A stretch of DNA of 38,853 bases from a virus. Made by a program: the position numbers and the translations under genes. Below the pieces are notes generated by a model. That model worked only from the letters and a program-made list of their open reading frames with translations, was not told where the DNA came from and searched no databases. The stretch lies in the UHGV virus genome UHGV-0046264; one strand, written 5' to 3'. Shown here one piece after another: positions 8,298 through 38,853 of the stretch (the first letter of the stretch is position 1; every line of letters begins with the position of its first letter).

Positions 8298-8552
8298 ATG
8301 AACCAGAAAACACTTGAAGATGTAATCAAAACTGTTCGCGTTTCTGTTGTGGCCGACGTTTGTGGTGTCAGCCAAAGAGCAATCTACAAATGGATGGATA
8401 ACGGAAAATTGCCTCGCACAGAATATACCGGCGAAACAAATTACGCTGAAAAAATCGCTCATGCATCAAACGGATTATTTTCTGCCGATGTAATTTTAAC
8501 TATTGGCAGAAATAAAACTACTACGAAAAAGCTGATGGGAGTTGATTCATGA
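8298..8552 (+). CDS. ydaS: Cro-like HTH DNA-binding protein (YdaS position), 84 aa
   Basis: HTH-like segment (VSVVADVCGVSQRAIYKWMDNGKLP); GAGGGTG ribosome binding site before the internal ATG; divergent from racR; ATGA overlap with ydaT. Symbol assigned from position, not sequence recall. Confidence 0.55.
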   Translation: MNQKTLEDVIKTVRVSVVADVCGVSQRAIYKWMDNGKLPRTEYTGETNYAEKIAHASNGLFSADVILTIGRNKTTTKKLMGVDS

Positions 8553-14575: not shown

Positions 14576-15097
14576 TGAAAATTCCTCAAGTTGGAGAGTT
14601 CTGGAACATTAAGGCGAGGTGGCAGTAATGCACCATCTGTAATCTTTTGATACTGACGTAATCGGACCTGATGTGCAACGCCTTGCAAGTATGTAACTCA
14701 TTGAAAACGATCATTTTTATCTATTGACATCAAATGGCAAACTGTCATTGTGCGGCTATGGCAAGTGGCAAATGCTTATAAATCATATGGATATAAATAG
14801 TACAGAAAGAGTTGTTTTCTCTAGGATATGAGTATACGCCCAATGCTGATTGGTTGAATTTTGTTCTTGTTTTAAAGGGTAAGAGTTTAAAGTGTTGGCA
14901 GTGATGTATTGGATAGTTAGAATTGCTGTGGGTGCTTGAGGCTATCTGCCTCGGGCATGAACACCAAAGGCAGATAGAGAAAAGCCCCAGTTAACATTAC
15001 GCGTCCTGCAAGACGCTTAACATTAATCTGAGGCCATATCTATGCGACACATAGAGATTAGCCTCTTACGGACCGAAAGGTCAAGGAGAAGCAGGCT

Positions 15098-15223
15098 ATG
15101 AAGCAGCAAAAGGCGATGTTAATCGCCCTGATCGTCATCTGTTTAACCGTCATAGTGACGGCACTGGTAACGAGGAAAGACCTCTGCGAGGTACGAATCC
15201 GAACTGGCAGACGGAGGCTCTGA
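15098..15223 (+). CDS. Hok/Gef-family type I toxin homologue, 41 aa as encoded (C-terminus shorter and divergent)
   Basis: MKQQKAMLIALIVICLTVIVTALVTRKDLCEVRIRTG matches the Hok/Gef/RelF transmembrane core, then RRRL-stop; AAGGAG ribosome binding site 9 nt upstream; structured leader with a 10-bp stem at 14933-14968. Confidence 0.7.
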   Translation: MKQQKAMLIALIVICLTVIVTALVTRKDLCEVRIRTGRRRL

Positions 15224-17114: not shown

Positions 17115-17404
17115 TGGTGGATTTACGTAAAGCGGCGCGGGGGCAGATGTGCACCGTCAGAATTCCTGGCTACTGCAATCACGATCCGGAAACGTCTGTG
17201 CTGGCGCATTACCGACTGGCGGGAACGTGCGGAACAGCGACAAAACCACACGATATGCAGGCGGCGATTGCCTGTAGCTCATGCCACGATCTAATCGACG
17301 GGCGGGTAAAAACCAGCGATTACACCAAAGAAGAATTACGCCTGATGCATGCAGAAGGTGTTTTTCGCACACAAGAAATCTGGAGAAAGGAGGGATATTT
17401 GTGA
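17114..17404 (+). CDS. DUF1364-family Cys-rich protein (YbcO-like putative nuclease), 96 aa
   Basis: MVDLRKAARGQMCTVRIPGYCNHDPETSVLAH...ACSSCHD resembles DLP12 YbcO; TAATG overlap with the upstream gene. Confidence 0.65.
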   Translation: MVDLRKAARGQMCTVRIPGYCNHDPETSVLAHYRLAGTCGTATKPHDMQAAIACSSCHDLIDGRVKTSDYTKEELRLMHAEGVFRTQEIWRKEGYL

Positions 17405-17943
17405 TTTACCCAACGAATACAGGAAAAAGCGGAGAACACCTTCGTCTCGCCACGCTGGAAAGTGTCTGGATTCAGGGCAAACTGCGTATGTGGGGGCGCT
17501 GGTCGTATATTGGCGGTGGCAGGTCAGGAAATATGTTCAATCAGTTGTTGGCATCCAAAAAATTGACGAAAACAGCCATCAATGAAGCCCTGCGCAGAAT
17601 GAAAAAAGCGGGAATAGAGAAAGCTGAGCTGGAAGCGTTTTTGCGAGAGATGATCAACGGCAAGCAAAAGAGCTGGCTGGCGCATTGTACTGATGCAGAG
17701 GCGTTATGTATTGATCGAGTCATAAGTGAGGTGCTGGCAGAGCATCCTGGATTGATTAGTGTCCTCCGGCAACGGTATGAAGGACGGGGGATGACTAAGC
17801 GCAAAATGGCTGAATTGCTAAATGATGCACATCCTGAGTGGTGTTTTAGCACATGCGAAAAGCGAATTGCTAATTGGTTGGCTGTTGCTGAGTATGCCCT
17901 ATATATTCCCATGCGAGAATCATTTGCTCAAAAAATAGCTTGA
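17401..17943 (+). CDS. Putative late-gene antiterminator Q-like protein, 180 aa, GTG start
   Basis: AAGGAGG 7 nt before the GTG; GTGA overlap with the DUF1364 stop; lies directly upstream of a short leader ending in an intrinsic terminator and then the lysis cassette. Assigned by position, not by sequence recognition. Confidence 0.5.
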   Translation: MIYPTNTGKSGEHLRLATLESVWIQGKLRMWGRWSYIGGGRSGNMFNQLLASKKLTKTAINEALRRMKKAGIEKAELEAFLREMINGKQKSWLAHCTDAEALCIDRVISEVLAEHPGLISVLRQRYEGRGMTKRKMAELLNDAHPEWCFSTCEKRIANWLAVAEYALYIPMRESFAQKIA

Positions 17944-18026
17944 TTTTTTACGCATAAACTGCTTCAATTCCGGTATGCTTCGCAAAGCTGTATCGCGAGG
18001 CGAACCAAGCGCATGAACTTTACCAG
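17944..18026 (+). promoter_or_regulatory. Predicted late promoter and qut-like region (PR' analogue)
   Basis: Located between the Q-like gene and a tR'-like terminator; no confident -35/-10 hexamers assigned. Confidence 0.3.
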
Positions 18027-18050
18027 AACCCGCCATTGAGCGGGTTTTGT
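18027..18050 (+). terminator. Intrinsic terminator (tR'-like): AACCCGC-CATTGA-GCGGGTT followed by TTTTGTTGTTT
   Basis: 7-bp GC-rich stem plus T-tract about 85 bp downstream of the Q-like stop. Confidence 0.7.
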
Positions 18051-18164: not shown

Positions 18165-18734
18165 ATGAGAGAACTACCTAAAGATTATTTTTTAGGAGTA
18201 GATGATGAGCTCGTCGATTATCTTGAAAAACAAGGGGAAGAGACGATACGAGAGATTCATCTTTCTAACAAAACCAATGTTGAGAATGGATACAAACTTC
18301 TGAACATTCAGATTGTTGGAATTGGTTCATCTTTTTTATTGCTGACACAGAAAACTAATTTCGATTTTCTCACCGCCGGAATTACCACATTTACATTACT
18401 ATGGACATGGTGCGCCATTTACTTGGTATGTACTGGTTTATCTGTGAAGGTTAGGGGCCTGATCAATGCCCCTCCTGATCATATATATCATGAAAAATAT
18501 AAGGATATGGAGCCCTCGAGCTTTAAAATATTCGCTGATGCAGGATATTTAGGACCTGATAAGTTATTGCCGCTTATACGAAGGTATCGCCTTGTTGACT
18601 TGAGTGATACAGCAAGAGAGTTACTGTTGGAAAATGAGAAAATCCGCACGAGTCTCGATAAAGCAAGGATGTATACCATCCTTGCTCCGGTAGCGGCGAT
18701 GTTTATCTCGGCTGTTTTTTTATATGTTCAATGA
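18165..18734 (+). CDS. Hypothetical multi-pass membrane protein in an AT-rich moron between Q/tR' and the lysis genes, 189 aa
   Basis: GGAGGTGAG ribosome binding site; soluble N-terminus (~55 aa), two central hydrophobic helices and a C-terminal hydrophobic helix; AT-rich composition unlike flanking phage genes. Confidence 0.6.
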   Translation: MRELPKDYFLGVDDELVDYLEKQGEETIREIHLSNKTNVENGYKLLNIQIVGIGSSFLLLTQKTNFDFLTAGITTFTLLWTWCAIYLVCTGLSVKVRGLINAPPDHIYHEKYKDMEPSSFKIFADAGYLGPDKLLPLIRRYRLVDLSDTARELLLENEKIRTSLDKARMYTILAPVAAMFISAVFLYVQ

Positions 18735-18864: not shown

Positions 18865-19081
18865 AAAAATCCTCTTTGTTTGAATTGTTACTTTTGGCGA
18901 TTTAACGATATCAAACACGAGTATATACCGCCAGAAGCTTAATCTGGCACTCCATCTGGCCCCGGCATGTCCCGGGGCTTTTTCGTTGTTAGGCTCTGGA
19001 AACATCCTCGACTTCTTGTTAGCAAGCCTGAGAGCCTGAATCTTACACTTAGCACCATCCGAACTCTCGGAGGTGAGGCTT

Positions 19082-20364: not shown

Positions 20365-20501
20365 AATCTTAACTACAATATGATTCATTTTGATGATTGT
20401 TTCATAAGGAACAGTGAAGTAAGATCTAAGAGGAGTTAAATTTTATACAGTATAATCATAATATTGCAGCAAGGTGGTTATAATTGAAAGAATATTTAGA
20501 T

Positions 20502-21959
20502 ATGAATACATCTCATGTAAGAGTTGTTACTCATATGTGTGGGTTCCTGGTTTGGCTCTATAGTCTTTCAATGTTGCCACCAATGGTTGTAGCATTGTTT
20601 TATAAAGAAAAAAGCCTGTTCGTTTTCTTTATAACTTTCGTTATATTTTTTTGCATTGGTGGCGGAGCGTGGTATACAACTAAGAAATCTGGCATTCAAT
20701 TACGTACCCGTGATGGGTTTATTATAATTGTAATGTTTTGGATTTTGTTTTCTGTTATTAGTGCATTCCCTTTATGGATTGACTCAGAACTTAATTTAAC
20801 GTTCATTGATGCTCTGTTTGAAGGGGTTTCTGGAATAACAACAACAGGAGCAACTGTAATTGATGATGTTAGTTCATTACCTCGGGCATATTTGTACTAT
20901 CGGTCACAGTTAAATTTTATAGGTGGTTTAGGAGTTATTGTTCTGGCGGTTGCTGTATTGCCATTATTGGGTATTGGTGGTGCAAAGCTTTATCAGTCAG
21001 AAATGCCGGGGCCATTTAAGGATGACAAACTCACTCCCCGCCTGGCCGATACGTCACGGACACTGTGGATAACTTATTCTTTATTAGGTATTGCTTGTAT
21101 TGTCTGTTATAGACTTGCAGGAATGCCTTTGTTTGATGCTATTTGTCACGGGATTTCCACAGTTTCGCTTGGTGGTTTCTCAACTCATAGCGAGAGTATC
21201 GGATATTTTAATAACTATTTGGTTGAGCTGGTGGCTGGTTCTTTTTCCCTGCTATCGGCTTTCAACTTCACTCTTTGGTATATTGTTATTAGCAGGAAAA
21301 CGATAAAACCTTTAATCAGAGATATTGAACTTCGTTTCTTTCTGTTAATAGCCTTAGGGGTGATCATTGTTACCTCTTTCCAGGTCTGGCATATAGGTAT
21401 GTATGACTTGCATGGAAGTTTTATTCATTCGTTTTTTCTTGCCAGCTCCATGCTCACTGATAATGGTTTAGCTACGCAGGATTATGCAAGTTGGCCCACG
21501 CACACGATAGTGTTTTTGCTGTTGTCAAGTTTCTTTGGGGGATGTATAGGTTCAACTTGTGGTGGAATTAAGTCACTTCGATTTCTTATACTTTTCAAAC
21601 AAAGCAAACACGAGATAAATCAGCTTTCTCATCCCAGAGCGTTGTTGAGTGTAAATGTAGGAGGGAAGATAGTTACAGATCGTGTAATGAGGTCTGTATG
21701 GAGTTTCTTTTTTCTTTATACTCTCTTCACGGTGTTTTTTATACTGGTGTTAAATGGTATGGGATATGATTTTCTTACATCATTTGCAACAGTGGCTGCA
21801 TGTATTAATAATATGGGATTAGGTTTTGGGGCTACTGCATCGTCATTCGGAGTGCTTAATGACATTGCAAAATGTTTAATGTGCATAGCTATGATTCTTG
21901 GTCGCCTTGAAATTTATCCTGTTATTATATTGTTTTCAGGTTTTTTTTGGCGCTCCTAA
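20502..21959 (+). CDS. trkG: TrkG potassium uptake protein (TrkH family), 485 aa
   Basis: Polytopic membrane protein starting MNTSHVRVVTHMCGFLVWLYSL; AT-rich codon usage; known Rac moron located after the lysis genes. Confidence 0.9.
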   Translation: MNTSHVRVVTHMCGFLVWLYSLSMLPPMVVALFYKEKSLFVFFITFVIFFCIGGGAWYTTKKSGIQLRTRDGFIIIVMFWILFSVISAFPLWIDSELNLTFIDALFEGVSGITTTGATVIDDVSSLPRAYLYYRSQLNFIGGLGVIVLAVAVLPLLGIGGAKLYQSEMPGPFKDDKLTPRLADTSRTLWITYSLLGIACIVCYRLAGMPLFDAICHGISTVSLGGFSTHSESIGYFNNYLVELVAGSFSLLSAFNFTLWYIVISRKTIKPLIRDIELRFFLLIALGVIIVTSFQVWHIGMYDLHGSFIHSFFLASSMLTDNGLATQDYASWPTHTIVFLLLSSFFGGCIGSTCGGIKSLRFLILFKQSKHEINQLSHPRALLSVNVGGKIVTDRVMRSVWSFFFLYTLFTVFFILVLNGMGYDFLTSFATVAACINNMGLGFGATASSFGVLNDIAKCLMCIAMILGRLEIYPVIILFSGFFWRS

Positions 21960-22045
21960 TATATGGCTGATTTATAATTGTGAGTTTAATATTATGTTGA
22001 CTCACTCATTGATCCAATACCTAACTTTACCAGCAACACCTCCGT

Positions 22046-22077
22046 CCCCAGTAGCACTGGCTGCTGGGGTGCGTTTT
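22046..22077 (+). terminator. Intrinsic terminator downstream of trkG: 10-bp stem CCCCAGTAGC/GCTGCTGGGG (one G-U pair), ACTG loop, then TGCGTTTTATT
   Basis: Strong hairpin plus U-rich tract about 85 bp after the trkG stop. Confidence 0.65.
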
Positions 22078-26382: not shown

Positions 26383-27789
26383 ATGGCTGATATATCAACA
26401 CCCAACCTCGACTATAACGATATGCTGGAGGCGTGGGATATTAACGACGCACTGATGGGCGGTACGCTTGAAATGCGCAGGCAGGGGGAAAATTATCTCC
26501 CAAAATGGCCTAACGAAGATGAAGACGCTTATAAAAAACGCCTGTCTGTGGCTACGCTACTTCCTGTGTATGAAGAAAGCATCAAGCAAAATATTGGGCG
26601 CATATTTGCAGAGCCGACAGTATTGAGTGAGGAAACGCCGGCAAAAATCAGGGAATATGCAGAAAATATCGACATGGAGGGGAGCCGACTGGATGTGTGG
26701 GCGCAGCAATTTTTCAGCCTCGCATTTCAGTATGGTGTGGCACATGCGCTGGTGGACTATCCACGAACGGATATGAAAGAGATTCGGACAAAAGCCGATG
26801 AAAACGCGGCCGGTGGTCGTCCGTACGTTACGATGCTGAATCCACGCCAGGTTATTGGATGGAAATCGAAAGTTGAAAAAGGGAAAGTTGTTCTCACTGA
26901 TTTGCGTATAAAAGAGGTCATCATTATTGATGGTGATGATTTCGGGCAGAAGAAGGTGGAGCAGATCCGCCATATTATGCCCCGTCGAGTTGAAATTTAT
27001 CGACGTAGCGAAGGCACTAATGGCGAATCTGTCTGGACGCTTCATGAGTCATGGAATACCAGCCGTGATGATATTCCTCTGGTAACACTGTACACGAAGA
27101 AAACAGGATTTATGCGTGGTACACCGCCATTGCTTAATCTTGGCTTGCTGAATATCAAGCACTGGCAAAGCCAGAGCGAGCAGGACAATATTCTTCATGT
27201 TGCCCGCGTTCCATTGCTGGTGGCCTACGGGCTGGACAGGAATGAAGAACTGACGGTTGGTGCATCCACCGCTACGATTTTTGAGGACAGAACAAAAAAT
27301 GGCCTCGAATATGTTGAACATAGTGGCGCAGCGATAGAATCTGGCGAAACATCACTTGAGAAGCTGGAAAATCAGATGCGTCATGCCGGCGCTAAACTTC
27401 TGCGTGCTGAAAATACATCCACCAAATCTGTTGATCAGACTAATGAAGAGCGAATGCAGGAAAACTCGCCGCTTTATACAATGGCGAACTCCCTCGAAGA
27501 TGCCCTCGATAATATTCTCCAGATAATGGCGGAATGGATCGGAGAGAGTTGCGGTGGCAATGTGGATGTGCGCACTGAACTGGATGTATCTGCCCAGGTG
27601 TTTGACTCATCCTCCGCGCTGGCTGTTCAGTCATTGCGTCAGGGCGGTGATATACGTCAGATTGATGCGGTTCGGGTGTTGCAGGCGTTGAAATTTATCG
27701 ATCAGGATTCCCGTCCAGAGGAAGTGATCGATGAATTAAAAAATCAGAGTGTAATGCTGATGGAAATCAATGATGCAAACCGTGAATGA
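26383..27789 (+). CDS. Portal protein, 468 aa
   Basis: Size and position between terL and the head morphogenesis gene; acidic C-terminus. Confidence 0.75.
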   Translation: MADISTPNLDYNDMLEAWDINDALMGGTLEMRRQGENYLPKWPNEDEDAYKKRLSVATLLPVYEESIKQNIGRIFAEPTVLSEETPAKIREYAENIDMEGSRLDVWAQQFFSLAFQYGVAHALVDYPRTDMKEIRTKADENAAGGRPYVTMLNPRQVIGWKSKVEKGKVVLTDLRIKEVIIIDGDDFGQKKVEQIRHIMPRRVEIYRRSEGTNGESVWTLHESWNTSRDDIPLVTLYTKKTGFMRGTPPLLNLGLLNIKHWQSQSEQDNILHVARVPLLVAYGLDRNEELTVGASTATIFEDRTKNGLEYVEHSGAAIESGETSLEKLENQMRHAGAKLLRAENTSTKSVDQTNEERMQENSPLYTMANSLEDALDNILQIMAEWIGESCGGNVDVRTELDVSAQVFDSSSALAVQSLRQGGDIRQIDAVRVLQALKFIDQDSRPEEVIDELKNQSVMLMEINDANRE

Positions 27790-28885
27790 ACGGCTGCGTG
27801 ATGAATCAATTGCTCATGCAGTCTGGATATCCCGCTATAGCACTGGCGTGGCTGCCAGAATGGTGAAAATACTGAATGACAGCGATGCGGAACTTACTGC
27901 TCGCCTGCTGATAGCACTGGACAGCCTCGATCCAGGTAGTTTTACCGTTAAGCGCCTGGAGTCACTTCTGGCGAGCGTCAGAGAGGTTAACCGCACTGCT
28001 ATTAACAGCATGTTTACCAGTCTCTCCGGAGAGCTGAACGAGCTGGCAATTTATGAGGCTGGTTATCAGTTAAGTCTGTTTGATTCTATGCTACCTGATT
28101 TTGTTGCTGATGTTCACCCTCTGGTTGGTATCTCTCCTGATGCACTTTATGCCGCTGCAATGGCGCGACCATTCCAGGGACGACTGCTCAGTGAGTGGGC
28201 CTCAGATCTTGAAGCGGATCGGCTCAGACGCATAACAAATACAGTGCGTCAGGGTTTTTTGCTGGGGGATACCAATGAGCAGATCGCAAGAAAAATTCGG
28301 GGACATGTCAGTAAGGGATTTCAGGATGGTGCATTGCAGATGAGCCGGGCTAATGCGGCCAGCATTGCAAAAACAGCGGTTGGACATCTTGCTGCTACTG
28401 CCCGTGAGAGTTTTGCCAGCGCGAATAATGATTTGATTAAGGGTAAGCAATGGTTATCAACGCTTGATAATCGTACTACGCCACAATGTCGAATCAGGGA
28501 TCGCCTCAAATATACGCTGAATAATAAACCTGTAGGTCACAGCGTGCCTTATTTGCAGGGGCCGGGAAAAATTCATTTCTGCTGCCGCTCAACGGAAACG
28601 TTCATTCTGAAATCAGCGAAGGAACTGGGTATTGATGTTCGCGATATTTCCCCGGCTGAGCGGGCCAGCATGGATGGCGTGGTGGCCGGAGATACAACCT
28701 ACAGGGAATGGTTTTTGCGTCAGCCTTACACCAGACAAAAACAGATTGTGGGGGAAACCCGAGCAAAGCTGATTCGGGATGGTGGTATGTCGCCAGATGA
28801 ATTTTACACCGATAAAGGCGAATGGCTGACGCTGAAGCAGCTCCGTGAGCGTGATGCACAGGTATTCAGAAAAGCAGGGATTTAA
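27770..28885 (+). CDS. Head morphogenesis protein (SPP1 gp7 / Mu F-like minor head protein), 371 aa
   Basis: Position immediately after portal, overlapping its 3' end; size and motifs typical of the family as I recall it. Confidence 0.65.
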   Translation: MMQTVNERLRDESIAHAVWISRYSTGVAARMVKILNDSDAELTARLLIALDSLDPGSFTVKRLESLLASVREVNRTAINSMFTSLSGELNELAIYEAGYQLSLFDSMLPDFVADVHPLVGISPDALYAAAMARPFQGRLLSEWASDLEADRLRRITNTVRQGFLLGDTNEQIARKIRGHVSKGFQDGALQMSRANAASIAKTAVGHLAATARESFASANNDLIKGKQWLSTLDNRTTPQCRIRDRLKYTLNNKPVGHSVPYLQGPGKIHFCCRSTETFILKSAKELGIDVRDISPAERASMDGVVAGDTTYREWFLRQPYTRQKQIVGETRAKLIRDGGMSPDEFYTDKGEWLTLKQLRERDAQVFRKAGI

Positions 28886-28904
28886 ATAAATCATTTATTA
28901 CAAC

Positions 28905-28929
28905 AGGCTACCTTCGGGTGGCCTTTTTT
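28905..28929 (+). terminator. Intrinsic terminator-like hairpin with UUCG tetraloop: AGGCTACC-TTCG-GGTGGCCT followed by TTTTTT
   Basis: 8-bp stem (one G-U pair), TTCG loop, T6 tract, between the head morphogenesis and scaffold genes. Confidence 0.6.
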
Positions 28930-28989
28930 ATTGCTGCGATCCGGATGGTGAGCAGCGTAACTGTCGGAAGACTTAAACCAGGTACTAAT

Positions 28990-29754
28990 ATGAAACTGAA
29001 AACGGTCGAGATTAACGGAAAACAATACGCAGAAATTGATACTGCTGGCCTGCCAGTTTATGTGCACGACGATGGTAAAGAAATTGGCTTCGATGCACCG
29101 CTGGCGACAAAAAAAATTACAGAGCTTAATGGCGAGGCAAAAAATCATCGCCTGGCTAAAGAAGCTGCAGAGGAAAAACTGGCTAAGTTTGCCGCTATCG
29201 AAGACCCGAAGAAGGCGATCGAGGCACTGGAAATGCTGTCAAAAATCGACCAGAAAAAGCTGCTCGATGCGGGACAGGTTGACCAGGTTAAGGCAGAAAT
29301 TACGAAAAATTTTCAGCAGCAATTAGATGAAGAAAAGCAACGCTCTCAGATGCTGGAGAAGCAGCTTTACGATTCTATGATTGGCGGTAGTTTTGCGGGT
29401 TCAAAATATATTGCCGATAAAATTGCGATCCCGGCAGATTTATTACAAGCCCGCTTCGGGCAGGCATTCAAAGTGGAAGAAGGGAGGATCGTTGCTTATG
29501 ACGCTTCCGGCAACAAAATTTATTCCCGCGCGAAGCCTGGCGAACTGGCGCAGTTTGATGAGGCGCTGGAGTTCCTTGTCGAAAATTACCCTCAGAAAGA
29601 CTACATCCTGAAAGCCAGTGGCAACAATGGCGGCGGCTCCCGTCCGACACAGCATGATATTGGTCAGAAAACGATGAAACGCTCTGCTTTTGATGCACTG
29701 GATGTTGCAGGTAAGCAAAACGCATTGAAAGACGGTATCACAATCGTTGATTAA
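28990..29754 (+). CDS. Putative scaffolding protein, 254 aa
   Basis: Coiled-coil-prone, charged protein directly upstream of the major capsid gene; start moved to the internal Met because the six-frame ORF begins inside the terminator hairpin. Confidence 0.55.
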   Translation: MKLKTVEINGKQYAEIDTAGLPVYVHDDGKEIGFDAPLATKKITELNGEAKNHRLAKEAAEEKLAKFAAIEDPKKAIEALEMLSKIDQKKLLDAGQVDQVKAEITKNFQQQLDEEKQRSQMLEKQLYDSMIGGSFAGSKYIADKIAIPADLLQARFGQAFKVEEGRIVAYDASGNKIYSRAKPGELAQFDEALEFLVENYPQKDYILKASGNNGGGSRPTQHDIGQKTMKRSAFDALDVAGKQNALKDGITIVD

Positions 29755-29852
29755 CACATTTGTCAGCTTCCGGATGGGAGCTGGTGTCAGGGCTGGATAG
29801 CTCATTACTCCATCTATTCACAATTACGCAAATTTTTAAGGAATATTTAATT

Positions 29853-30992
29853 ATGGCTGGAAATACCCTGACCGGGTTGATCCCGACTATTTATACCGCC
29901 CTGGATGTTGTATCCCGTGAGCAGGTAGGTTTTATCCCTGCGGTAGCAAAAAACGCAAAAGCTGACGCCGCAGCAAAAGATCAGACGGTAACCGCGCCAG
30001 TTGCGCCTGAGGCGAAAACCGAAGATATCGTACCGGGGCCGTCAGCTCCGAATACCGGTGATCAAAATATTGGCACTGTTGATGTAAAAATTACTAAATC
30101 CAAAATGGCACCGGTTAAATGGAATGGTGAAGAACAACTGGCTCTTGGCCCTTCAGGGACTTACAACACCATTCTGGCTGATCAGTTCAAGCAGGCTTTT
30201 CGCGCCCTTGCAAACGAGGTTGAGGCTGATCTTGGTGCGTTGTATTTCGGTGCTTCCCGCGCCGTGGGAACCGCAGGGACAACGCCGTTTGGTGTTAAAG
30301 ATGATCTTTCTGATGCTGCTCTGGCTCGTCAGGTTCTGGAGGATAACGGCGCACCGACAACCGATCTGCAGATGGTGCTTGGCTCCACTGCCATTGCTAA
30401 TTTGCGCGGAAAACAGTCTGTATTGTTTAAAGTGAATGAATCCGGCACTGAACAGCTACTGCGTGAGGGCGTGTTGGGGCGTCTGGAGGGATTCAATATT
30501 CACAGTTCGGCAGGTGTGAAACGAGCGCCAAAGGTTGCTGCAACTGGTTATCTCGTGAATGGAGAGAAAAAAGAAGGCGATGTTCTTATTTCCATTGATA
30601 CTGGTTCGGGGAGTATTTCTGCAGGTCAGATTGTTACGTTCGCTGGTGATCCGAATCAGTATGTTGTGGCAGCAGCGACCAGCAATCTGATTACTCTTGC
30701 AGCGCCCGGACTGCGTCAGGATCTGGCCGATGATACTGCCATCACAGTTGTTGGGGCCTTTACTGCAAATATGGCGTTTGATCGCAACGCGTTTCTGCTG
30801 GCATCCCGTACTCCGGCAATGCCGGAAGGTGGCGATAATGCTGATGATGTAATGAATGTTACGGACCCGATTTCAGGGATTACGTTCCAGATTGCACTGT
30901 ATCGTCAGTATCGCCAGGTGCGCTATGAAGTTGGACTGGCATGGGGTGTTTCATCAGTGAAGCCGGCACATGGTTGTCTGATTCTTGGTTAA
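29853..30992 (+). CDS. Major capsid protein, 379 aa
   Basis: Follows the scaffold gene and precedes a strong terminator; Gly/Ala/Thr-rich composition typical of coat proteins; start at internal Met MAGNTLTG. Confidence 0.7.
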   Translation: MAGNTLTGLIPTIYTALDVVSREQVGFIPAVAKNAKADAAAKDQTVTAPVAPEAKTEDIVPGPSAPNTGDQNIGTVDVKITKSKMAPVKWNGEEQLALGPSGTYNTILADQFKQAFRALANEVEADLGALYFGASRAVGTAGTTPFGVKDDLSDAALARQVLEDNGAPTTDLQMVLGSTAIANLRGKQSVLFKVNESGTEQLLREGVLGRLEGFNIHSSAGVKRAPKVAATGYLVNGEKKEGDVLISIDTGSGSISAGQIVTFAGDPNQYVVAAATSNLITLAAPGLRQDLADDTAITVVGAFTANMAFDRNAFLLASRTPAMPEGGDNADDVMNVTDPISGITFQIALYRQYRQVRYEVGLAWGVSSVKPAHGCLILG

Positions 30993-31002
30993 ACATTCAA
31001 AC

Positions 31003-31022
31003 GGGGCTTCGGCCCCATTTTT
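31003..31022 (+). terminator. Intrinsic terminator after the capsid gene: GGGGC-TTCG-GCCCC followed by ATTTTT
   Basis: 5-bp GC stem with UUCG tetraloop and T-tract 11 bp after the capsid stop. Confidence 0.65.
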
Positions 31023-31034
31023 AATGGGGGGCAT

Positions 31035-31211
31035 ATGGCCGGATTAACTAAAGAGCAAAGAGCACAGCGTGAAGCCGCACAAAAAACGCAAATTGAGTTA
31101 GTGGTTATGGTGACCGATTATCAGATGTTTCCCGGCGCACCAACTATCGCTAATGTTCATCCTGATGAAGTTGACAACTGGAAGGCTATGGGCTGGAAAA
31201 CTCAGGAGTAA
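31035..31211 (+). CDS. Small hypothetical head-region protein, 58 aa (MAGLTKEQRAQREAAQKTQIELVVMVTDYQMFPG...)
   Basis: Hand-translated; AATGGGGGG ribosome binding site; below the ORF-track threshold; fills the gap between the capsid terminator and the next gene. Confidence 0.45.
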   Translation: MAGLTKEQRAQREAAQKTQIELVVMVTDYQMFPGAPTIANVHPDEVDNWKAMGWKTQE

Positions 31212-31214
31212 CAC

Positions 31215-31610
31215 ATGATCACTTACGTGACCTGTGATGACGTTGATAATGCGTTTGGGAACGCCTGGACGAGTGAGAACGCTAAAAATAAAGCTGTTTT
31301 AATGGCTAATGCCTGGCTTAATGGCTTCAACCTGAAAATTAACCCATCCCGTATTCCGGAAGAGGTAAAACTTGCGGGAGCATATGCAGCCAGAATTGCC
31401 TCATTCGGTAAGTTGTTTCAGCAGAAAAATGATTCTGGCGTTGTTATCAGTAAAGCCGTGTCGGCTGACGGGGTCAGTGTATCGAAATCATTTTCTGAGT
31501 TGCCAGCAAACAGCACTGCATTGCTTGAACCCGATTTACAGCTTGCGATAGCACTGCTGAAACAGTACGGACTTAGTCGCTCACAAGTCAGGGTTGTGAG
31601 GGGGGGATAA
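31215..31610 (+). CDS. Putative head-tail connector / head completion protein, 131 aa
   Basis: Position in the head-tail joining block; no family confidently recognised. Confidence 0.45.
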   Translation: MITYVTCDDVDNAFGNAWTSENAKNKAVLMANAWLNGFNLKINPSRIPEEVKLAGAYAARIASFGKLFQQKNDSGVVISKAVSADGVSVSKSFSELPANSTALLEPDLQLAIALLKQYGLSRSQVRVVRGG

Positions 31611-31993
31611 TGGGGCTTCGTGAAGAGATTCAGTCAGAGGTTGCCGCTGCTTTTGATGAGGATTTAGCGGACGCCGTGAGTGATTTTTCTGGTTCTTACG
31701 TTACGCACCGGCACTGGGATCCTGTGACGGAAACTGGCGGCGAATCCACCGCAATCTATACCGGGCGAGGCGTGTTGACACGTTATAAGCTGGGCAGAAT
31801 TGATGGGATTAATATTTTGCATGGTGACCTTAAATTAACCGCTCTGGTATGCGAGGTTACGGATAAACCAGCTGTCGACCATATTATTGAGATTTATGAT
31901 CCTGTATCAAGGCAGTTACAACGATACGAGGTAATTACAGCAAGTGTAGATCCTTCCGCATCAGTTTACTCTATCCAGTTAAGGAGAGCGTAA
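31610..31993 (+). CDS. Putative head-tail adaptor / head closure protein, 127 aa
   Basis: ATGG overlap coupling to the upstream gene; position only. Confidence 0.45.
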   Translation: MGLREEIQSEVAAAFDEDLADAVSDFSGSYVTHRHWDPVTETGGESTAIYTGRGVLTRYKLGRIDGINILHGDLKLTALVCEVTDKPAVDHIIEIYDPVSRQLQRYEVITASVDPSASVYSIQLRRA

Positions 31994-32374
31994 ATGGCAA
32001 AGGCATGGGATATAGAACCGTCAATATTTGCCGGGATGATTGAGGAAGATGTAGGGCTGAAGATTCGCTACATCGCTATTCAGATTCTTACTGCTATTGA
32101 TATTGCTGCTCCGGTTGATACCGGACGTTTCAGAAATAACAACCTGGTGTCGTTACAGCATCCCGATTTTGGTATATCTGATAACGTGGATCCGAACGGT
32201 ACGATTGCTGTTCAGCGTGGGATCGGGGTTATTTCGAAAGCTGCAAATTACGGGGTTATTTATATCCAGAATAACCTTCCTTATGCAGAGGCTCTTGAAA
32301 ACGGTCATTCACAACAAGCGCCAACTGGCGTGTATGCCAACGCTTTTCATGGTGTTTTACAGGCTTACAAATGA
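31994..32374 (+). CDS. HK97 gp10-like tail component protein, 126 aa
   Basis: Contains the DTGRFRNN motif I associate with the HK97 gp10 family; position before the tail tube gene. Confidence 0.5.
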   Translation: MAKAWDIEPSIFAGMIEEDVGLKIRYIAIQILTAIDIAAPVDTGRFRNNNLVSLQHPDFGISDNVDPNGTIAVQRGIGVISKAANYGVIYIQNNLPYAEALENGHSQQAPTGVYANAFHGVLQAYK

Positions 32375-32763
32375 AGTTTACTGAAATCAGAAATACGGTT
32401 ATTTCCAGAATGACGGCACAGACGATTATTGATGGAAAAGACGTATTGTATCCGAACGGGCCAACGTTCGATCCTTCCGGTAAGTTAATCTGGGCGCGGT
32501 TAAGTAATATTCCCGGGCAAGCTGGAGTTAATGAAATTGGCGCGGGGCCGGTTGTTTATCGCACGGGGATAATCATTATTCAGTTATTTGTCCCCGCAGG
32601 TTCTGGTTCAAAACTCATTACTGAGACAGCCGATAAATTGCGGGAACTGTTTGAGTTTCAGGATGACGATCGTCTCAGTTACCAGGCTGTTTCCTCAATA
32701 GCCGTCGGCGAAAAGAATGGCTGGTTCCAGCTTAATCTTCAAATTCCATATCGCGCGCTCTAG
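32371..32763 (+). CDS. Putative tail terminator / tail completion protein, 130 aa
   Basis: ATGA overlap with the upstream gene; position directly before the major tail protein. Confidence 0.45.
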   Translation: MKFTEIRNTVISRMTAQTIIDGKDVLYPNGPTFDPSGKLIWARLSNIPGQAGVNEIGAGPVVYRTGIIIIQLFVPAGSGSKLITETADKLRELFEFQDDDRLSYQAVSSIAVGEKNGWFQLNLQIPYRAL

Positions 32764-32789
32764 CGCAATTAATGACATAGGAGGCTCCT

Positions 32790-33752
32790 GTGAGTTCAGG
32801 TGCAAAGGTTATCTCGGCATTTATCCGGGAGACAGTTGCAGGCACTACGCCAGCAAGTGGTGACTGGAGTTTATTAAAACGCACAAGCTGGGGAGTAAAA
32901 CCCACCCAGAATAAAGGCGAAAATAATGAGATTGGTGGCTCCCGGATGGCTCAGGGGGCGACGCCTGGCACTGTGGATGTCGGCGGTGATGTTGGTACCA
33001 AATTTCGCTGGGGTCAACATGATGATTTTCTTGCATCCTGTTTCGGCGCGGAATGGTCAGGCGATTCTCTGACAATGGGGAATGAGCGAATAACATTTTC
33101 TCTGGCGACCTATGCGTCCGATGTCGGAATTGCCTCTGTCGTCAGAGGAGCGCAGGTTGGCTCATGGAAAATGCAGATCCCTAACGACGGCGATATTACA
33201 GCGACCGTAACCTTTGCCGGGCTGGGCTGGGAATCAAAGGCCGATGATACGAATTTTATCAAAGGCGAACCTGTGGATAGTGCAGGAAAGTTACGCTATT
33301 CGTTTAAGGCGGTTTCAGCAGTAAGCCTGAATGGTGTTGCCGGAGGTAACGGTTTTTGTATCGACAGTTTTGATATTCAGTTCGATAACAAACTCCAGAC
33401 ACAGCGTTGTATCGGGACTGGCTCGCCTTATGCAGGAGCAAATATTCCGACTACTTTTACACCGTCCGGTACGGTGACGCTTTCATGGTCTAAAGCCGCG
33501 TGGGAAATCTGGAGTAAAACACTGACTGGAGAAACAGTTCCGTTCAGCTTCACGCTTTCGAATGGAGAGGGGGCATACACTTTCAGTTTCCCGAAGGTTC
33601 AGGTGTCAGGTGAATGGCCTGATGGGGGTAATACTGACATTATCCAGGTTCAATTGAGCATTACCGCAGCAGATGAAGCACCTACGATAACCAGAAAAAA
33701 ATGCTCCCCGACTGCCGTGATCGCAAAAGCCAGTGCTGATGCGATTAGTTGA
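32790..33752 (+). CDS. Major tail (tube) protein, 320 aa
   Basis: Position upstream of the chaperone pair and tape measure; Gly/Ser/Thr-rich; AGGAGG ribosome binding site. Confidence 0.65.
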   Translation: MSSGAKVISAFIRETVAGTTPASGDWSLLKRTSWGVKPTQNKGENNEIGGSRMAQGATPGTVDVGGDVGTKFRWGQHDDFLASCFGAEWSGDSLTMGNERITFSLATYASDVGIASVVRGAQVGSWKMQIPNDGDITATVTFAGLGWESKADDTNFIKGEPVDSAGKLRYSFKAVSAVSLNGVAGGNGFCIDSFDIQFDNKLQTQRCIGTGSPYAGANIPTTFTPSGTVTLSWSKAAWEIWSKTLTGETVPFSFTLSNGEGAYTFSFPKVQVSGEWPDGGNTDIIQVQLSITAADEAPTITRKKCSPTAVIAKASADAIS

Positions 33753-33800
33753 TTTTCCGTTATTCCCCCTGTGGTACTGCACTACAGGGGGACGCATTGA

Positions 33801-34262
33801 ATGAGGTTATGGATGTTTATTCTTAATCAGAAAATTATCATCGGTGGAGAACGCTGGTTTACGCCAATGAAGGACTTAAAACCTATAGACGGGTTAAAAC
33901 TGTTGGTGGCAAGCAGCGATAACGATCAGTATCGCTCCCGTAATGCATTAATCCGTCGTCACATTGAGAAAATGGATGCCAGTTTGCACGTCGGAACGAA
34001 GGAGTTTGATATTTCAAAGGTTTCCGAGGTAGATTCTGTTGATGATTTACTCATTGATAATGCTGCTCGTTATCTGCTGAAAGACTGGAAAGGGGTTGGT
34101 GAACTGGTTAATGGTGCTGAGGTTGCACTGGAATATACGCCAGAACGAGGGATCGCGCTGCTTAAGCAGAATCCAGAGTTGTACTGGCAGATCCTTGCAG
34201 AAGCAGCCAGCATCGCCCAGGGTAAAGAGCAGCAGAAGCAGGATACGATAAAAAAGCCATAG
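33801..34262 (+). CDS. Tail assembly chaperone (lambda G-like), 153 aa (start uncertain)
   Basis: Acidic protein directly upstream of the tape measure gene; ends 2 codons after an A_AAA_AAG slippery heptamer. Confidence 0.65.
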   Translation: MRLWMFILNQKIIIGGERWFTPMKDLKPIDGLKLLVASSDNDQYRSRNALIRRHIEKMDASLHVGTKEFDISKVSEVDSVDDLLIDNAARYLLKDWKGVGELVNGAEVALEYTPERGIALLKQNPELYWQILAEAASIAQGKEQQKQDTIKKP

Positions 34263-34570
34263 CCGCCCAGCGGTGGTTATCGGAGTTCGGGGGAGAAAGG
34301 GGGGAAAAGGCAAGATGGAAGCGAGAAAAACTCAGGTTGCCACCGATACCGGAACCAGAAATAGACCCGGTGCTAAAGGAATTGTTGTACGCCTATTCGG
34401 TAATATCCCGTGCCCGACGTTATGCTGGAATGACCGGGGTGCCTTTGCCTTTATCTCTGACAGAGATAAATGAATATTTAGCCACTCATCCGGTATTGAT
34501 TGAGCGCGATGAGTTTGAAGCAGTGATCTTTGCACTGGATGACCAGTATTTTCAGGAGCAGTGTGTGTAG
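33801..34570 (+). CDS. Tail assembly chaperone G-T-like fusion produced by -1 frameshift at 34250-34256
   Basis: The ORF at 34337-34570 is in the -1 frame relative to the chaperone and has no convincing start of its own; this arrangement is conserved upstream of tape measure genes. Confidence 0.55.
34250..34256 (+). other. Programmed -1 ribosomal frameshift slippery heptamer A_AAA_AAG
   Basis: Heptamer in the zero frame of the chaperone gene; the -1 frame stays open from here to 34570. Confidence 0.65.
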
Positions 34571-34690
34571 TTGTTAATTACGTACACTCTGTTACAGAGA
34601 TGTGATGGTGTCTTTAATTAAATCGATGATGCTCCTGGAGAAAAGCATTGCGTGGCCTCGTAATCGCTATATCTACTATTATGTCGCCTG

Positions 34691-34715
34691 AAACCCACTT
34701 CGGTGGGCTTTTTGT
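34691..34715 (+). terminator. Terminator-like hairpin with UUCG tetraloop: CCCAC-TTCG-GTGGG followed by CTTTTTGTTG
   Basis: GC stem plus T-tract 20 bp upstream of the tape measure start. Confidence 0.5.
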
Positions 34716-34733
34716 TGTCTGGAGTTTTAATAA

Positions 34734-37700
34734 ATGGCAGAGCAAACCTCGCGTCTCGCAATAATTATTGATAGCACTGGAGCAAAAAATAATGCTGACA
34801 ATCTGACCTCCTCATTAGTCAAAATGACGCAGGCCGGGGAAACTGCTGCAAATAGCGCAGGGAAAGTGACTAAGGCAACAGAAGATGAGAAGAACGCGCT
34901 CGCAAAATTAAAAGCAGCTATTGATCCAGTTGGTGCCGCAATTGATACTGTCGGTCGACGCTATTCTGAATTAAAGAAATTTTTCGATAAAGGGCTTATT
35001 GATAAAGAAGAATATGAATTTCTTGTCCGTAAACTTAATGAAACCACAGAGGAATTGAGCGGGGTTGCGCAAGCGCAGAGAGAAGCCGAGAAGGCCGGAA
35101 AACTTGCTGCCGCCCAGCAGGAAGCGCAGACTCAGGCCTTTCAAAGAATGCTGGACAAGATCGACCCTCTGGCTGCGGCGCTAAGAAATCTTGAACAACA
35201 GCAGGATGAACTTAATGCTGCGTTTGCATCCGGGAAAATAAATGGTTCTCAGTTTGAGAATTATAGCCGAAAAATACAGGAAACACGGCGAGAGCTTACC
35301 GGAGAGGCTCAGGCAGAGCGAGAAGCAGCAAAAGCGCATGATGAACAGGTTGCTGCTTTGCAACGTCTGATTGCTCAACTTGACCCTGTCGGAACTGCTT
35401 TTAATCGTCTGGTAGAACAACAGAAACAGCTCAATGAAGCAAAAGCTAAGGGGATGCTCTCTCCTGAAATGTATGAGGAACTTTCTGGAAAACTTCGTGC
35501 TATGCGGAGTGAGCTTGAGGTTACTCAATCTCAATTAAGCAAAACCGGAATGTCGGCAAAACAAACGGCTTTTGCTATGCGCATGTTGCCTGCACAAATG
35601 ACGGATATTGTTGTTGGGTTGTCCACTGGTCAGTCGCCTTTTATGGTGTTAATGCAGCAGGGCGGCCAGCTAAAAGATATGTTCGGTGGGATTGGCCCGG
35701 CGATCAAAGGTGTTGGTTCTTATGTGCTGGGATTAATTAATCCTTTTACCCTGGCCGCAGCAGCCGTTGGCGTCTTAGGGCTGGCTTACTATAAAGGCTC
35801 TCAGGAGCAGGACGAATTTAATAAGTCTCTTATTCTTACCGGAAATCAGTTGGGGACAACCAGCGGGCAATTGGCCGATATAGTTCAACGTGCCGGGAAT
35901 GCGGCTGATTCGACAACTGGCGCTGCGGCGGCAGTATTAAACCAGCTTGTGCGTTCGGGAAAGGTAGCGAGCAGTTCGCTGGAGCAAGTGACGACAGCGA
36001 TAGTAAAAACGAGCGAAGTAACAGGAATATCAACCGAACAACTGGTTAATGACTTCAATGAAATTGCAAAGGATCCTGTCAGTGCCATATCAAAACTTAA
36101 TGATCAGTACCATTTTCTGACAATTGCGACTTATAACCAGATTAAGGCGCTACAGGATGAAGGGAACCAGCAGGAGGCCGCCCGCATTGCGACAGAAGCA
36201 TACTCATCCTCAATGATCCAGCGCACCAACCAGATTAAAGAAAATCTTGGTTATCTTGAGACTGCATGGAAAGCTGTCGCAGACTCCGCAAAATGGGCAT
36301 GGGATTCCATGCTGGATATTGGCCGTGAGGCCTCCCTTGATCAAAAAATCTCAGATGTTCTCCGTCAAATTGATGAAATAGAAAAAAATACCCGACCCGG
36401 AGTTTTCGGGTTAGGTGGCATTGGAGATGGCGGAGCTCAAAATAAAAGGCTGGCACGATTAAAGCAGCAATTGGGCGTACTTCAAGCAGAAAAAATTGCT
36501 CAGGACGTACTAAATTCATCAATAAATGATTACAACAAGCGACAACAGGAAGGAATTGAACTCAGACAGAGAGCAGATGCCTTTTCAAAACAATATCAGA
36601 CCCGGGAGCAGCAGAGAGCTAGTGAACTTGCAAAACTGGAAAAACTAAAGAGTCAGTATTCAAAGGAAGAATATAATAATCTTATCGCTCAAATAAATGA
36701 GCGTTATAAAGATCCAAAGCAACCAAAGGCGAAAGGTTATTCGGATGATGCTGCCCAACGAATGATTGATCATCTGAATCAACAGAATGCGTTACTAAGT
36801 TCACAAACTGAATTAACCGTTAAATTAAGTTCCTCTGAACAGGAACTGGTTAAGTGGCGTCAGCAGATTGCCGACCTGGAGTCACGACCGTCATCGAAAT
36901 TAACCAAGGATCAGAAATCGCTTCTCTTACACCGGGAAGAAATAACCGCGTTGATGGAGAAAAATGTTGCGATTGAAAAAAATAACAGGCTAATCAAGGA
37001 ATCCGCCGAAATAGCTGCATGGCGTGATTCATTGCAGGCTTCGATTGATAATCGTCAACAGGGGTATGATATTCAGATTGCTGGTTATGGGGTTGGCGAT
37101 AAAAATCAGCAACGCCAGCAGGAATTACTGCGGATTGAACGTGAATATAACAATCAGCGTCTGCAACTTGAACGTGACTATGCAGATAAATCCCGTGGGA
37201 TGTCAAATCATGTTTTTCAGGAGAAAATGCAGGCTCTGAATGATGCTCTGGAACGAGAAAAAGAAATTGTCAGACAGAAAAACGAGCAGCTCGATATTCA
37301 GGCAGGAGACTGGGTTAGTGGTGCCTCCCAGGGATTCAATAACTGGCTGGATGACACTAAGGATATCAGTGAGCAGATAAAATCAACCACGACTCAGATG
37401 TTTGATGGAATGACCGATGCGCTGGGTGATTTTGTCACGACAGGCAAAGCAAATTTTCGTTCTTTCGCTACTTCCGTGATTTCGGATCTTAGTCGAATAG
37501 CATTAAAGGCTTCAATTACTGGGATTTTCGACAGCATTAGTAACAGTTCTTCTGGGGGGATTTTAGGAACTATCGGGAGTGCTATTAGTAAATTTATTCC
37601 GAATGCAAAGGGCGGTGTTTATGAGTCTCCGTCATTGAACACGTATTCGAACGGTATTTATGATTCCCCGCAATTTTTTGCTTTTGCAAGAGGGGCTGGT

Positions 37701-37967
37701 GTTTTTGGTGAGGCTGGTCCGGAAGCCATTATGCCATTAACACGAACTTCCGATGGTTCTCTTGGTGTCAGAGCTGTTAATAGTAAAAGTGGTAATGGAG
37801 GCGGAGATATTACCTATGCCCCTGTATACCAAATCACTATTCAAAATGACGGCCAGAATGGAGAGATTGGCCCTCAGGCAATAAAAGCACTTATGGGGAT
37901 GGTTGATCAGCGGGTGCAGGGCAATCTGTTAAATATGCGACGTGATGGGGGAATGTTAAGTGGCTAA
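34734..37967 (+). CDS. Tail tape measure protein, 1077 aa
   Basis: Very long coiled-coil-rich ORF with three ~70-aa tandem repeats near the N-terminus, central hydrophobic segments, and a lambda H-like C-terminal region; follows the chaperone pair. Confidence 0.9.
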
Positions 37968-38298: not shown

Positions 38299-38853
38299 TG
38301 CAGGACATACAACAGGAAACGCTGAATGAATGCATTCGTGCGGAGCAGTCGGCCAGCGTGGTGCTCTGGGAAATCGACCTGACCGAGGTAGGCAGGGATC
38401 GCTACTTTTTCTGTAATGAGCAGAACGAAAAAGGTGANNNNNNNNNNTTTTCTGTAATGAGCAGAACGAAAAAGGTGAGTCTGTCACCTGGCAGAGTCGG
38501 CAGTATCAGGCCTATCCCATTCAGGGGAGTGGATTTGAGATGAACGGCAAGGGCAGTGCTGCCCGTCCGACACTGGCGGTCTCTAACCTGCACGGCATGA
38601 TCACCGGGATGGCGGAAGATCTGCAGAGTCTGGTCGGCGGAACGGTGGTCCGGCGTAAGGTTTACGCCCGCTTTCTGGATGCGGTGAACTTCGTCAACGG
38701 AAACAGCGATGCCGATCCGGAGCAGGAGGTGATCAGCCGCTGGCGCATCGAGCAGTGCAGCGAACTGAGCGCGGTCAGTGCCTCTTTTGTACTGTCCACG
38801 CCGACTGAAACGGATGGCGCTGTTTTTCCGGGACGTATCATGCTGGCCAACAC
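38298..38853 (+). CDS. Minor tail protein, lambda L homologue (partial; runs off the window; interrupted in silico by an N-gap with duplicated flanks)
   Basis: [32 protein letters not shown]...; after the gap the downstream frame reads ...GMITGMAEDLQSLVGGTVVRRKVYARFLDAVNFVNGNSDADPEQEVISRWRIEQCSELSAVSASFVLSTPTETDGAVFPGRIMLAN, as I recall lambda L. Confidence 0.8.
38438..38447. other. Assembly gap (N10) flanked by a 31-nt direct duplication
   Basis: TTTTCTGTAATGAGCAGAACGAAAAAGGTGA occurs on both sides of the N run (38407-38437 and 38448-38478). Confidence 0.9.

Follow-up and report, generated by a model that had tools for sequence, protein, structure and literature searches.

Several described phages carry annotated terminators or stem-loops inside the late operon, and they are the closest precedents for the three hairpins considered here, which we call H1, H2, and H3 and which lie in the late structural operon of the virus genome UHGV-0046264 (38,853 nucleotides [nt]; this whole stretch of DNA, as analyzed, is “the window”). 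HK97 (NC_002167), a lambdoid phage, has annotated putative terminators at the same three boundaries: the first (3309-3335) precedes the head protease/capsid cassette, the second (5192-5213) follows the major head gene, and the third (8398-8422) lies past the moron gp15, immediately ahead of the tape-measure gene. In P22 (NC_002371 6102-6119), a stem_loop annotated directly after coat gene 5 is almost H2 itself, reading GGGGC-TGCG-GCCCC then TTTCTTT, and a note in the record states that its location is similar to that of the HK97 and lambda stem-loops. HK639 (NC_016158) shares the head module of the window, with 75% capsid identity. Its annotated terminator at 4901-4922 (AGGTCGC-TTCG-GCGGCCT then six T) is the ortholog of H1, an ortholog of H2 is present and unannotated, and four terminators are annotated after its Q-like gene.

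The purpose of such sites has also been discussed. Writing on phage L, Zaworski et al. (PMC8022706) considered that intra-operon terminators may cause partial termination or may block non-antiterminated transcription, their roles being not known. By narrowing the RNA exit channel, the antiterminator Q keeps terminator hairpins from forming (10.1101/651190, PMC6606751), and Q-loaded polymerase has been described as termination-deficient (10.1101/651190, 10.1101/2022.03.25.485794, PMC6606751).

Here, we report that H1, H2, and H3 are likely to be genuine elements of the Rho-independent-terminator type, placed at module boundaries of a lambdoid late operon that would be transcribed from a promoter by the Q-like gene. 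We also describe a structured RNA leader that adjoins H1 and has a second copy ahead of the capsid gene.

Three UUCG hairpins and their conservation

The initial annotation had placed hairpins with TTCG loops and T-tracts before the scaffold gene, after the capsid gene, and before the tape-measure gene. All three are there as described, in intergenic gaps on the + strand, and the three gene labels agree with Pfam, PHROG, and GenBank annotation (stems and coordinates are collected in Table 1). H1 occupies the gap between the end of the MuF-like gene (28885) and the scaffold ATG (28990); H2 starts 11 nt past the capsid stop (30992), ahead of a small gene at 31035; and H3 lies 27 nt ahead of the tape-measure ATG (34734).

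An intrinsic terminator should combine a GC-rich hairpin of ~5-14 bp and a short loop with a U-tract, taken here as at least five T in eight bases. The stems have 8 bp (5 GC) in H1, 5 bp (5 GC) in H2, and 5 bp (4 GC) in H3, with loops of 4 nt, and each is followed by a U-tract of this kind: in H1 (TTTTTTATT) it is continuous with the stem, in H2 it has an A first, and in H3 it is interrupted and the weakest. All three sites are on the transcribed strand, in gaps between + strand genes. Their loops are closed by C-G (ACC-UUCG-GGU, GGC-UUCG-GCC, and CAC-UUCG-GUG), the arrangement of the extra-stable C(UUCG)G tetraloop.

An independent mechanical terminator scan also lists H1, H2, and H3. They are the only GC-rich hairpins with a TTCG loop on either strand of the 38.8-kb window, and 1000 dinucleotide-preserving shuffles gave a mean of 0.006 for terminator-like hairpins and 0.146 for hairpins alone; none reached three, even with the T-tract requirement dropped. 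Taken by themselves, H3 and its flanks are no more stably folded than shuffled sequence (z -0.84).

Relatives were gathered in two sets: 80 IMG/VR loci found by capsid protein, mostly close relatives, and 80 species-level genomic loci found with a 6-sequence capsid alignment (48-100% capsid identity), which span Enterobacterales, Pseudomonas, Acinetobacter, Xanthomonadales, Burkholderiales, Rhizobiales, and metagenome-assembled genomes of other phyla. Seven annotated phages were added. For 84 species-level loci, terminator-like hairpins were counted per 100-nt bin relative to the capsid stop, which gives a profile free of annotation. Over a background of 0.03-0.05 per locus, this profile has a spike of 0.66 (next bin, 0.16) just upstream of the scaffold gene, at the position of H1, and another of 0.43 in the first 100 nt past the capsid stop, at that of H2.

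A terminator-like hairpin stands at the H1 position in 55 of the 84 loci, with stems that covary freely while the U-tract is nearly invariant. The stem is AGGCTACC/GGTGGCCT in the window, GGTCGC/GCGGCC in HK639, AGCGCC/GGTGCT in an Acinetobacter phage, and AGCCCTGGC/GCCGGGGCT in Pseudomonas, and the Klebsiella-type stem AGGCTGCC/GGCGGCCT has a compensatory A-T to G-C change relative to the window. RNAalifold, applied to 13 leaders, found five pairs with compensatory changes, three of them in the H1 helix. Prophages of further lineages have the H1-type terminator too, among them those of Pseudomonas, Burkholderiales, and Rhizobiales.

The hairpin at the H2 position, GGGGC-TTCG-GCCCC, is almost unchanged in Enterobacterales relatives. 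It holds in relatives with capsid identities as low as 70%, and in an Acinetobacter phage with 53% identity, between intergenic flanks that have fully diverged. More distant phages (Pasteurella Pm86, Paraglaciecola JLT2, and Vibrio SSP002) have unrelated hairpins with T-runs there. TTCG loops account for 25/36 at H2, 17/68 at H1, and 6/309 in the background; since relatives also use UCCG, UCAG, UUAG, and UGCG, the UUCG loop is preferred, not essential. Both H1 and H2 are under selection.

In addition, small accessory genes have repeatedly been inserted between the MuF-like gene and H1. A hydrophobic open reading frame (ORF) of 38 amino acids (aa) lies there in HK639 (4785-4901), and three other loci (L004, 4783-5022; L073; L087) have an inserted accessory gene with its own terminator, the H1-type hairpin being kept downstream. 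In Paraglaciecola JLT2 (L007), the MuF-scaffold gap has no terminator and holds a perfect palindrome, TCTATCAGTGATAGA, which is operator-like (4330-4350).

A structured leader before the scaffold and capsid genes

Four bases past the U-tract of H1, a structured leader begins whose conservation reaches much further than that of any sequence around it. A GCAAC-like linker separates its GGAU hairpin from a second hairpin (GGAU or GGAA loop), and most relatives have a third, GGCC-GGAA-GGCY, which abuts a GGAG Shine-Dalgarno (SD) sequence. In the window, the scaffold SD is AGGU (28980-83), followed by the ATG at 28990. The 140 nt ahead of the scaffold start show a 22.5-fold enrichment of such GGAU/GGAA hairpins; at least one is present in 58 of the 64 scaffold leaders, and at least two in 46, with 32 distinct stems.

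The pairing holds up well in alignment. Across 37 leader sequences, 98.9% of cells are paired and nine of ten pairs have compensatory changes (49 cells); none of 500 shuffles scored as high, and pairing in a slid register came to 17-52%. The outer helix, which MAFFT did not keep in register, is shown by examples and left out of these pair counts. A covariance model built from the alignment matches 61 of 88 sources strongly and exactly once per locus (E<=2e-8); every match is at the scaffold leader, many are in loci outside the seed, and the window scores 50.2 bits.

Second-tier matches of this model revealed hairpins in the leader of the capsid gene. Two GGAU-loop hairpins lie in the scaffold-capsid spacer in 31 of the 84 loci, the window included, and in a 25-sequence alignment, 88.9% of cells are paired and 15 of 16 pairs have a compensatory change (0/500 shuffles as high). 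The hairpins overlap the 5' end of the annotated capsid ORF, which starts at 29784 in ON470614 (the longest ORF runs from a TTG at 29760). Because the PHROG 283 match starts only at residue 26 of the 29784 ORF and relatives begin MAGNTLTGLIP, the capsid start is probably the ATG at 29853, which has the SD AAGGAA 9 nt upstream.

At the gathering threshold, an Rfam search of the whole window returned RalA and sok only, with no family at the scaffold or capsid leader. GP20-a and GP20-b (RF02991, RF03003) had no match at E<=10 in window 28860-29010 or HK639 4860-5030. Permissive Rfam matches to H1 with its leader, the HK639 leader, and H2 were sub-threshold and driven by the generic terminator hairpin, and we rejected them: they comprise small RNA (sRNA) 3' ends, an L2-Alphaproteobacteria leader at 19 bits (gathering 37.8), and CRISPR-DR12. 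A promoter in the H1-scaffold gap was also rejected, because the conserved bases there covary as RNA helices; no sigma-70-like site is listed in the gap. An sRNA derived from a 3' end and ending at H1 was likewise dropped, resemblance to a terminator being the sole evidence.

A further reading, possible though less likely than not, is that H1 is no free-standing terminator and instead forms the 5' boundary of a deeply conserved, apparently undescribed cis-regulatory RNA. The GGAU/GGAA array of the scaffold and capsid leaders would then serve as an operator at which a multimeric RNA-binding protein adjusts the synthesis or stability of the two most abundant head proteins, with H1 and H2 delimiting the regulated mRNA unit. 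The array is conserved in relatives at 48-100% capsid identity, in Enterobacterales and in other lineages that include Pseudomonas, Burkholderiales, and Rhizobiales. Its regulator could be a host protein of the CsrA/Rsm type, or else the scaffold protein of the phage, which would then control its own mRNA. Post-transcriptional control of head proteins was described genetically for the P22 scaffold decades ago; Wyckoff and Casjens, as cited in PMC2115188, are said to have reported its autoregulation in 1985, and we know of no defined RNA operator for it.

CsrA/RsmA sites present GGA in hairpin loops, within an A(N)GGA penta- or hexaloop, and come as at least two sites 10-63 nt apart. The leader array is similar in that GGA is in the loops of short hairpins, in that two or three sites follow each other at ~22-27 nt (at least two in 46/64 scaffold leaders, as above), and in that the last one of the long form abuts the SD. 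It differs in that the loop is a 4-nt GGAU closed by C-G, so that the closing C of the stem precedes GGA in nearly all copies and the A(N)GGA context is missing. In addition, the capsid-leader copy is ~50 nt from the SD, and the motif is also present in alpha- and betaproteobacterial prophages. Literature searches on CsrA with phage capsid, on Term-seq of lambdoid late operons, and on HK639 antitermination yielded nothing decisive. If the ligand were CsrA/Rsm, the motif would tie the synthesis of late phage proteins to one of the global regulators of the host.

Gene order and possible roles of the three sites

The window is a Rac-like E. coli prophage. Its late region is 99.9% identical to Escherichia phage vB_EcoS-666R9 and relatives, and Rac-type markers are present in the form of the RalA sRNA, trkG, and a YdaY-like tail chaperone. 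The order of the + strand genes was drawn from Pfam, PHROG, and GenBank annotation (Table 1), and it places a Q-family gene ahead of those for lysis and virion structure, in the order Q, holin, endolysin, Rz, terminase, head, and tail. The stretch 17878-18049, from the promoter-like site to the tR'-like terminator, is the presumed start of the late operon, judging by its lambda pR'/tR' layout. Six intergenic terminator-like sites lie on the + strand of the late region, at 18024, 18958, and 22046 and at H1, H2, and H3.

Some further features of the window may be recorded here. trkG and the strong terminator after it form a typical moron. The Rfam matches to RalA (225 bits; the RalR/RalA antitoxin sRNA) and sok (104 bits), at 1608-1786 and 14930-15100 and above the gathering score, indicate two toxin-antitoxin RNA loci in the prophage. 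The 10 N at 38438-38447, near the right end, are an assembly gap or masked bases.

Table 1. Features of the window discussed in the text, in order of position
Feature	Coordinates	Strand	Details
Q-like antiterminator gene	17401-17943	+	DUF1133 1e-107; Phage_antitermQ 27.4 bits (cut-off 26); PHROG 753 4e-79; Q in ON470614
Promoter-like site	17878-17907	+	TTGGCT-18-TATATT; overlaps 3' end of Q-like gene; consensus match only
tR'-like strong terminator	18024-18049	+	Predicted; ~120 nt past the promoter-like site
189-aa gene	18165-18734	+	PHROG 11870
Terminator-like site	18958-18979	+	Between 189-aa gene and holin gene
Holin, endolysin, and Rz genes		+	3' of 189-aa gene
trkG potassium-uptake gene (moron)	within 20484-22069	+	Late region, between lysis genes and ParB-like gene
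Terminator-like site	22046-22069	+	After trkG; strongest in window, -22.5 kcal/mol
ParB-like, small and large terminase subunit, and portal genes		+	Successive, 3' of trkG
MuF-like head-morphogenesis gene	27770-28885	+	
H1	28905-28929 (hairpin 28905-28924)	+	AGGCTACC-TTCG-GGTGGCCT then TTTTTATT; 8 pairs; -13.2 kcal/mol; z -4.0
Scaffold leader	28933-28972	+	Outer helix GCTGC/GCAGC (28933-37 with 28952-56) around CC-GGAU-GG (28941-48); then GTC-GGAA-GAC (28963-72)
Head scaffolding gene	28990-29754	+	Pfam DUF6651; PHROG 784 and 206 (head scaffolding protein)
Capsid leader	29761-29803	+	TGTCAGCTTCC-GGAU-GGGAGCTGGTG (29761-86); GGGCT-GGAU-AGCTC (29790-803)
Major capsid gene, P22-coat-like	29853-30992	+	PHROG 283; probable start ATG 29853
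H2	31003-31022 (hairpin 31003-31016)	+	GGGGC-TTCG-GCCCC then ATTTTTAA (AUUUUU); -9.6 kcal/mol
58-aa gene, Ad1 adaptor, and further genes	58-aa gene starts 31035	+	3' of capsid
Tail tube gene	32790-33752	+	Then tail chaperone genes
Strong hairpin, no U-tract	33765-33791	+	11-12 bp; directly past tail-tube stop; -22.1 kcal/mol
H3	34694-34717 (hairpin 34694-34707)	+	CCCAC-TTCG-GTGGG, C, UUUUUGUUG; tail CTTTTTGTTG; -7.2 kcal/mol
Tape-measure gene	34734-37967	+	ATG 34734

The initial annotation held that the three sites should terminate unmodified RNA polymerase and therefore make sense only if read through under Q-type antitermination, perhaps silencing late genes in the lysogen. Part of this stands, as the terminator anatomy, the selection on the hairpins, and the Q-like gene with its promoter-like site and tR'-like terminator all support it. 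Given that arrangement, Q-modified read-through is the standard expectation for a lambdoid late operon, and read-through of H1-H3 by Q-modified polymerase is a reasonable inference from it. A weaker point is the specific tie of the H1-type site to Q, to which we return below.

We propose that polymerase without Q modification would halt at H1-H3, including polymerase coming from spurious or moron promoters in the lysogen, so that the scaffold-capsid cassette and the tail genes would be insulated from non-antiterminated transcription. During lytic growth, Q-modified polymerase would pass all three sites. The transcribed hairpins would still fold in the mRNA: H2 would be a stable structure 3' of the capsid message, H1 would form the 5' boundary of the conserved GGAU-loop hairpin leader ahead of the scaffold gene, and H3 would act as the terminator of a moron slot ahead of the tape-measure gene, weak in this allele.

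It is important to set out what weighs against this account. The H2 stem has only 5 bp and its U-run begins after an A, and the H3 allele of the window is no better than shuffles, with an interrupted U-run. Prophages of many phyla combine the same head module with the H1-type terminator, the function of which is therefore probably not specific to Q; its association with Q may be a coincidence. Some distant relatives even have a terminator-like hairpin between scaffold and capsid, a finding that is hard to fit with models in which the hairpins stop a useful fraction of late transcription. As for the initial annotation, H3 is weak, and the same slot in relatives holds an Ail/Lom moron with its own terminator, so H3 may be moron-associated and not a control of the tape measure.

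H1 is the best conserved of the three sites, yet it lies 5' of the two most abundant head proteins; together with the terminator-type hairpin between scaffold and capsid in relatives, this favors insulation and/or mRNA-level roles of the folded hairpins, which may give 3' protection or form the boundaries of a processed scaffold-capsid message.

It is quite possible, if somewhat short of an even chance, that the hairpins are moron-associated terminators or relics of mosaic joints, having arrived with accessory genes as promoter-gene-terminator units and marking recombination joints, with no part in regulating the structural genes. This applies mainly to H3. Most relatives have a terminator-like hairpin just upstream of the tape-measure ribosome-binding site, in at least five unrelated sequences; HK639 lacks it, as does one further lineage. 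An Ail/Lom outer-membrane-protein gene (Pfam Ail_Lom, 3e-27; for example, L066 9974-10510) is inserted ahead of the hairpin in several close relatives, with its own terminator, and HK97 has the moron gp15 and a terminator at the same position. In the window, H3 is preceded by 120 nt of lower-GC DNA (40% GC; slot 34571-34693). We rejected the 29-aa ORF that it holds (34604-34693) as a gene, given that it has no Pfam match and that its ATG is lost in some close relatives. A moron should have its own gene and promoter, and there is no + strand promoter-like site in 34571-34690. The window allele of H3 has a C right after the stem and, with flanks, reaches -9.6 kcal/mol versus -14.7 and -15.0 for the common alleles.

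The H1 gap takes morons too, in HK639 and in the loci L004, L073, and L087. However, H1 and H2 are kept with or without a moron, in hosts from E. coli to Acinetobacter and Pseudomonas, and an insert at H1 adds a second terminator while H1 itself is retained. H3 is thus best read as the terminator of a moron slot, weak in the window allele, and for H1 and H2 we keep to selected terminator-type elements.

A role at the level of RNA is possible as well, although we are inclined to doubt it as the explanation by itself. Processing of the late transcript, perhaps by RNase E where the RNA past H1 is U-rich and single-stranded, would yield a long-lived scaffold-capsid mRNA with the GGAU-hairpin leader at its 5' end and, at its 3' end, H2 blocking exonucleases. 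The scaffold-capsid pair is exactly bracketed by H1 and H2, the structured leader begins ~4 nt past the U-tract in nearly all loci, and the short stems are highly stable through their C(UUCG)G loops. In addition, the strong hairpin past the gene for the tail tube, another abundant protein, has no U-tract, which indicates that plain hairpins are also kept after abundant-protein genes; HK97, with further annotated terminators around its major tail gene, has one annotated at this position, as does HK639. On the other hand, the near-invariant U-tract of H1 is expected of a terminator and is not needed for an exonuclease barrier, and the processing site is only hypothetical. Such a role is also compatible with terminator-type elements, and does not exclude them.

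The idea that the sites set stoichiometry, raised in the initial annotation and published for phage L (PMC8022706), would make them attenuators: even Q-modified polymerase would partly terminate, and upstream genes would be transcribed more than downstream ones. It suits H2, which divides the capsid (hundreds of copies per virion) from the connector genes (~12 copies), and H3, upstream of which are the genes for the tail tube and chaperone and downstream of which are the tape-measure and tip genes, with low-copy products. H1, the most conserved site (0.66 per locus), does not fit it, since scaffold and capsid, the two most abundant head proteins, are needed in the largest amounts and termination upstream of them would lower both relative to terminase and portal; attenuation is therefore not the stoichiometry role of H1. 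Some relatives have a terminator directly ahead of the capsid gene, H3 is weak in the window, and Q-loaded polymerase has been described as termination-deficient (10.1101/651190, 10.1101/2022.03.25.485794). We regard attenuation as unlikely.

That these are functionless chance hairpins is most improbable: H3 alone, with its flanks, could pass for shuffled sequence, but three sites were observed where 0.006 were expected, and the positional peaks in 84 loci and the compensatory stem changes refute chance for H1 and H2.

Comparison with described systems

In view of the HK97, HK639, and P22 annotations and the phage L paper, the three terminators are a correct rediscovery, and their interpretation repeats published hypotheses. 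The systems are not the same in all respects. HK97 has an unrelated capsid family and different hairpin sequences and loops (AAATAA, GAAA, and TATCA), and no GGAU-hairpin leader was seen in it. In P22, the loop after the coat gene is UGCG, not UUCG, and portal and scaffold are 13 nt apart, which leaves no room for an H1-type terminator. HK639 lacks the hairpin before the tape measure, as already mentioned, and its scaffold leader is the long three-hairpin form.

The likeness to lambda Q/tR' lies in the Q-family protein, the promoter-like site at the end of the Q gene, the short leader to an intrinsic terminator, and the long late operon. It differs from lambda in its Q, a DUF1133-type protein that matches Phage_antitermQ only at threshold level. 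Neither a Q-binding element nor a sigma-dependent pause was identified. The terminators provide a clean comparative data set on what phage intra-operon terminators are for, and that the most conserved site stands before the scaffold gene speaks against simple attenuation and in favor of insulation, RNA-level roles, or both.

The GGAU-hairpin leader adjoining H1, with its second copy ahead of the capsid gene, is apparently undescribed. The value of the region lies in this composite element, in which a terminator leads into a GGAU-hairpin leader and then the scaffold gene, and the leader recurs ahead of the capsid gene. It would offer a handle on post-transcriptional control of head-protein stoichiometry. 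The nearest precedents are GP20-a and GP20-b (RF02991, RF03003) and six further candidates (PMC10690425), which are also structured RNAs directly 5' of a phage scaffold-like gene. The leader described here differs from them in its tandem GGAU/GGAA tetraloop hairpins, in the presence of the motif ahead of the capsid gene as well, and in its hosts, which are mostly Proteobacteria, whereas those of the six newer candidates are mostly Firmicutes (such as Veillonella, Lachnoclostridium, and Lysinibacillus; PMC10690425).

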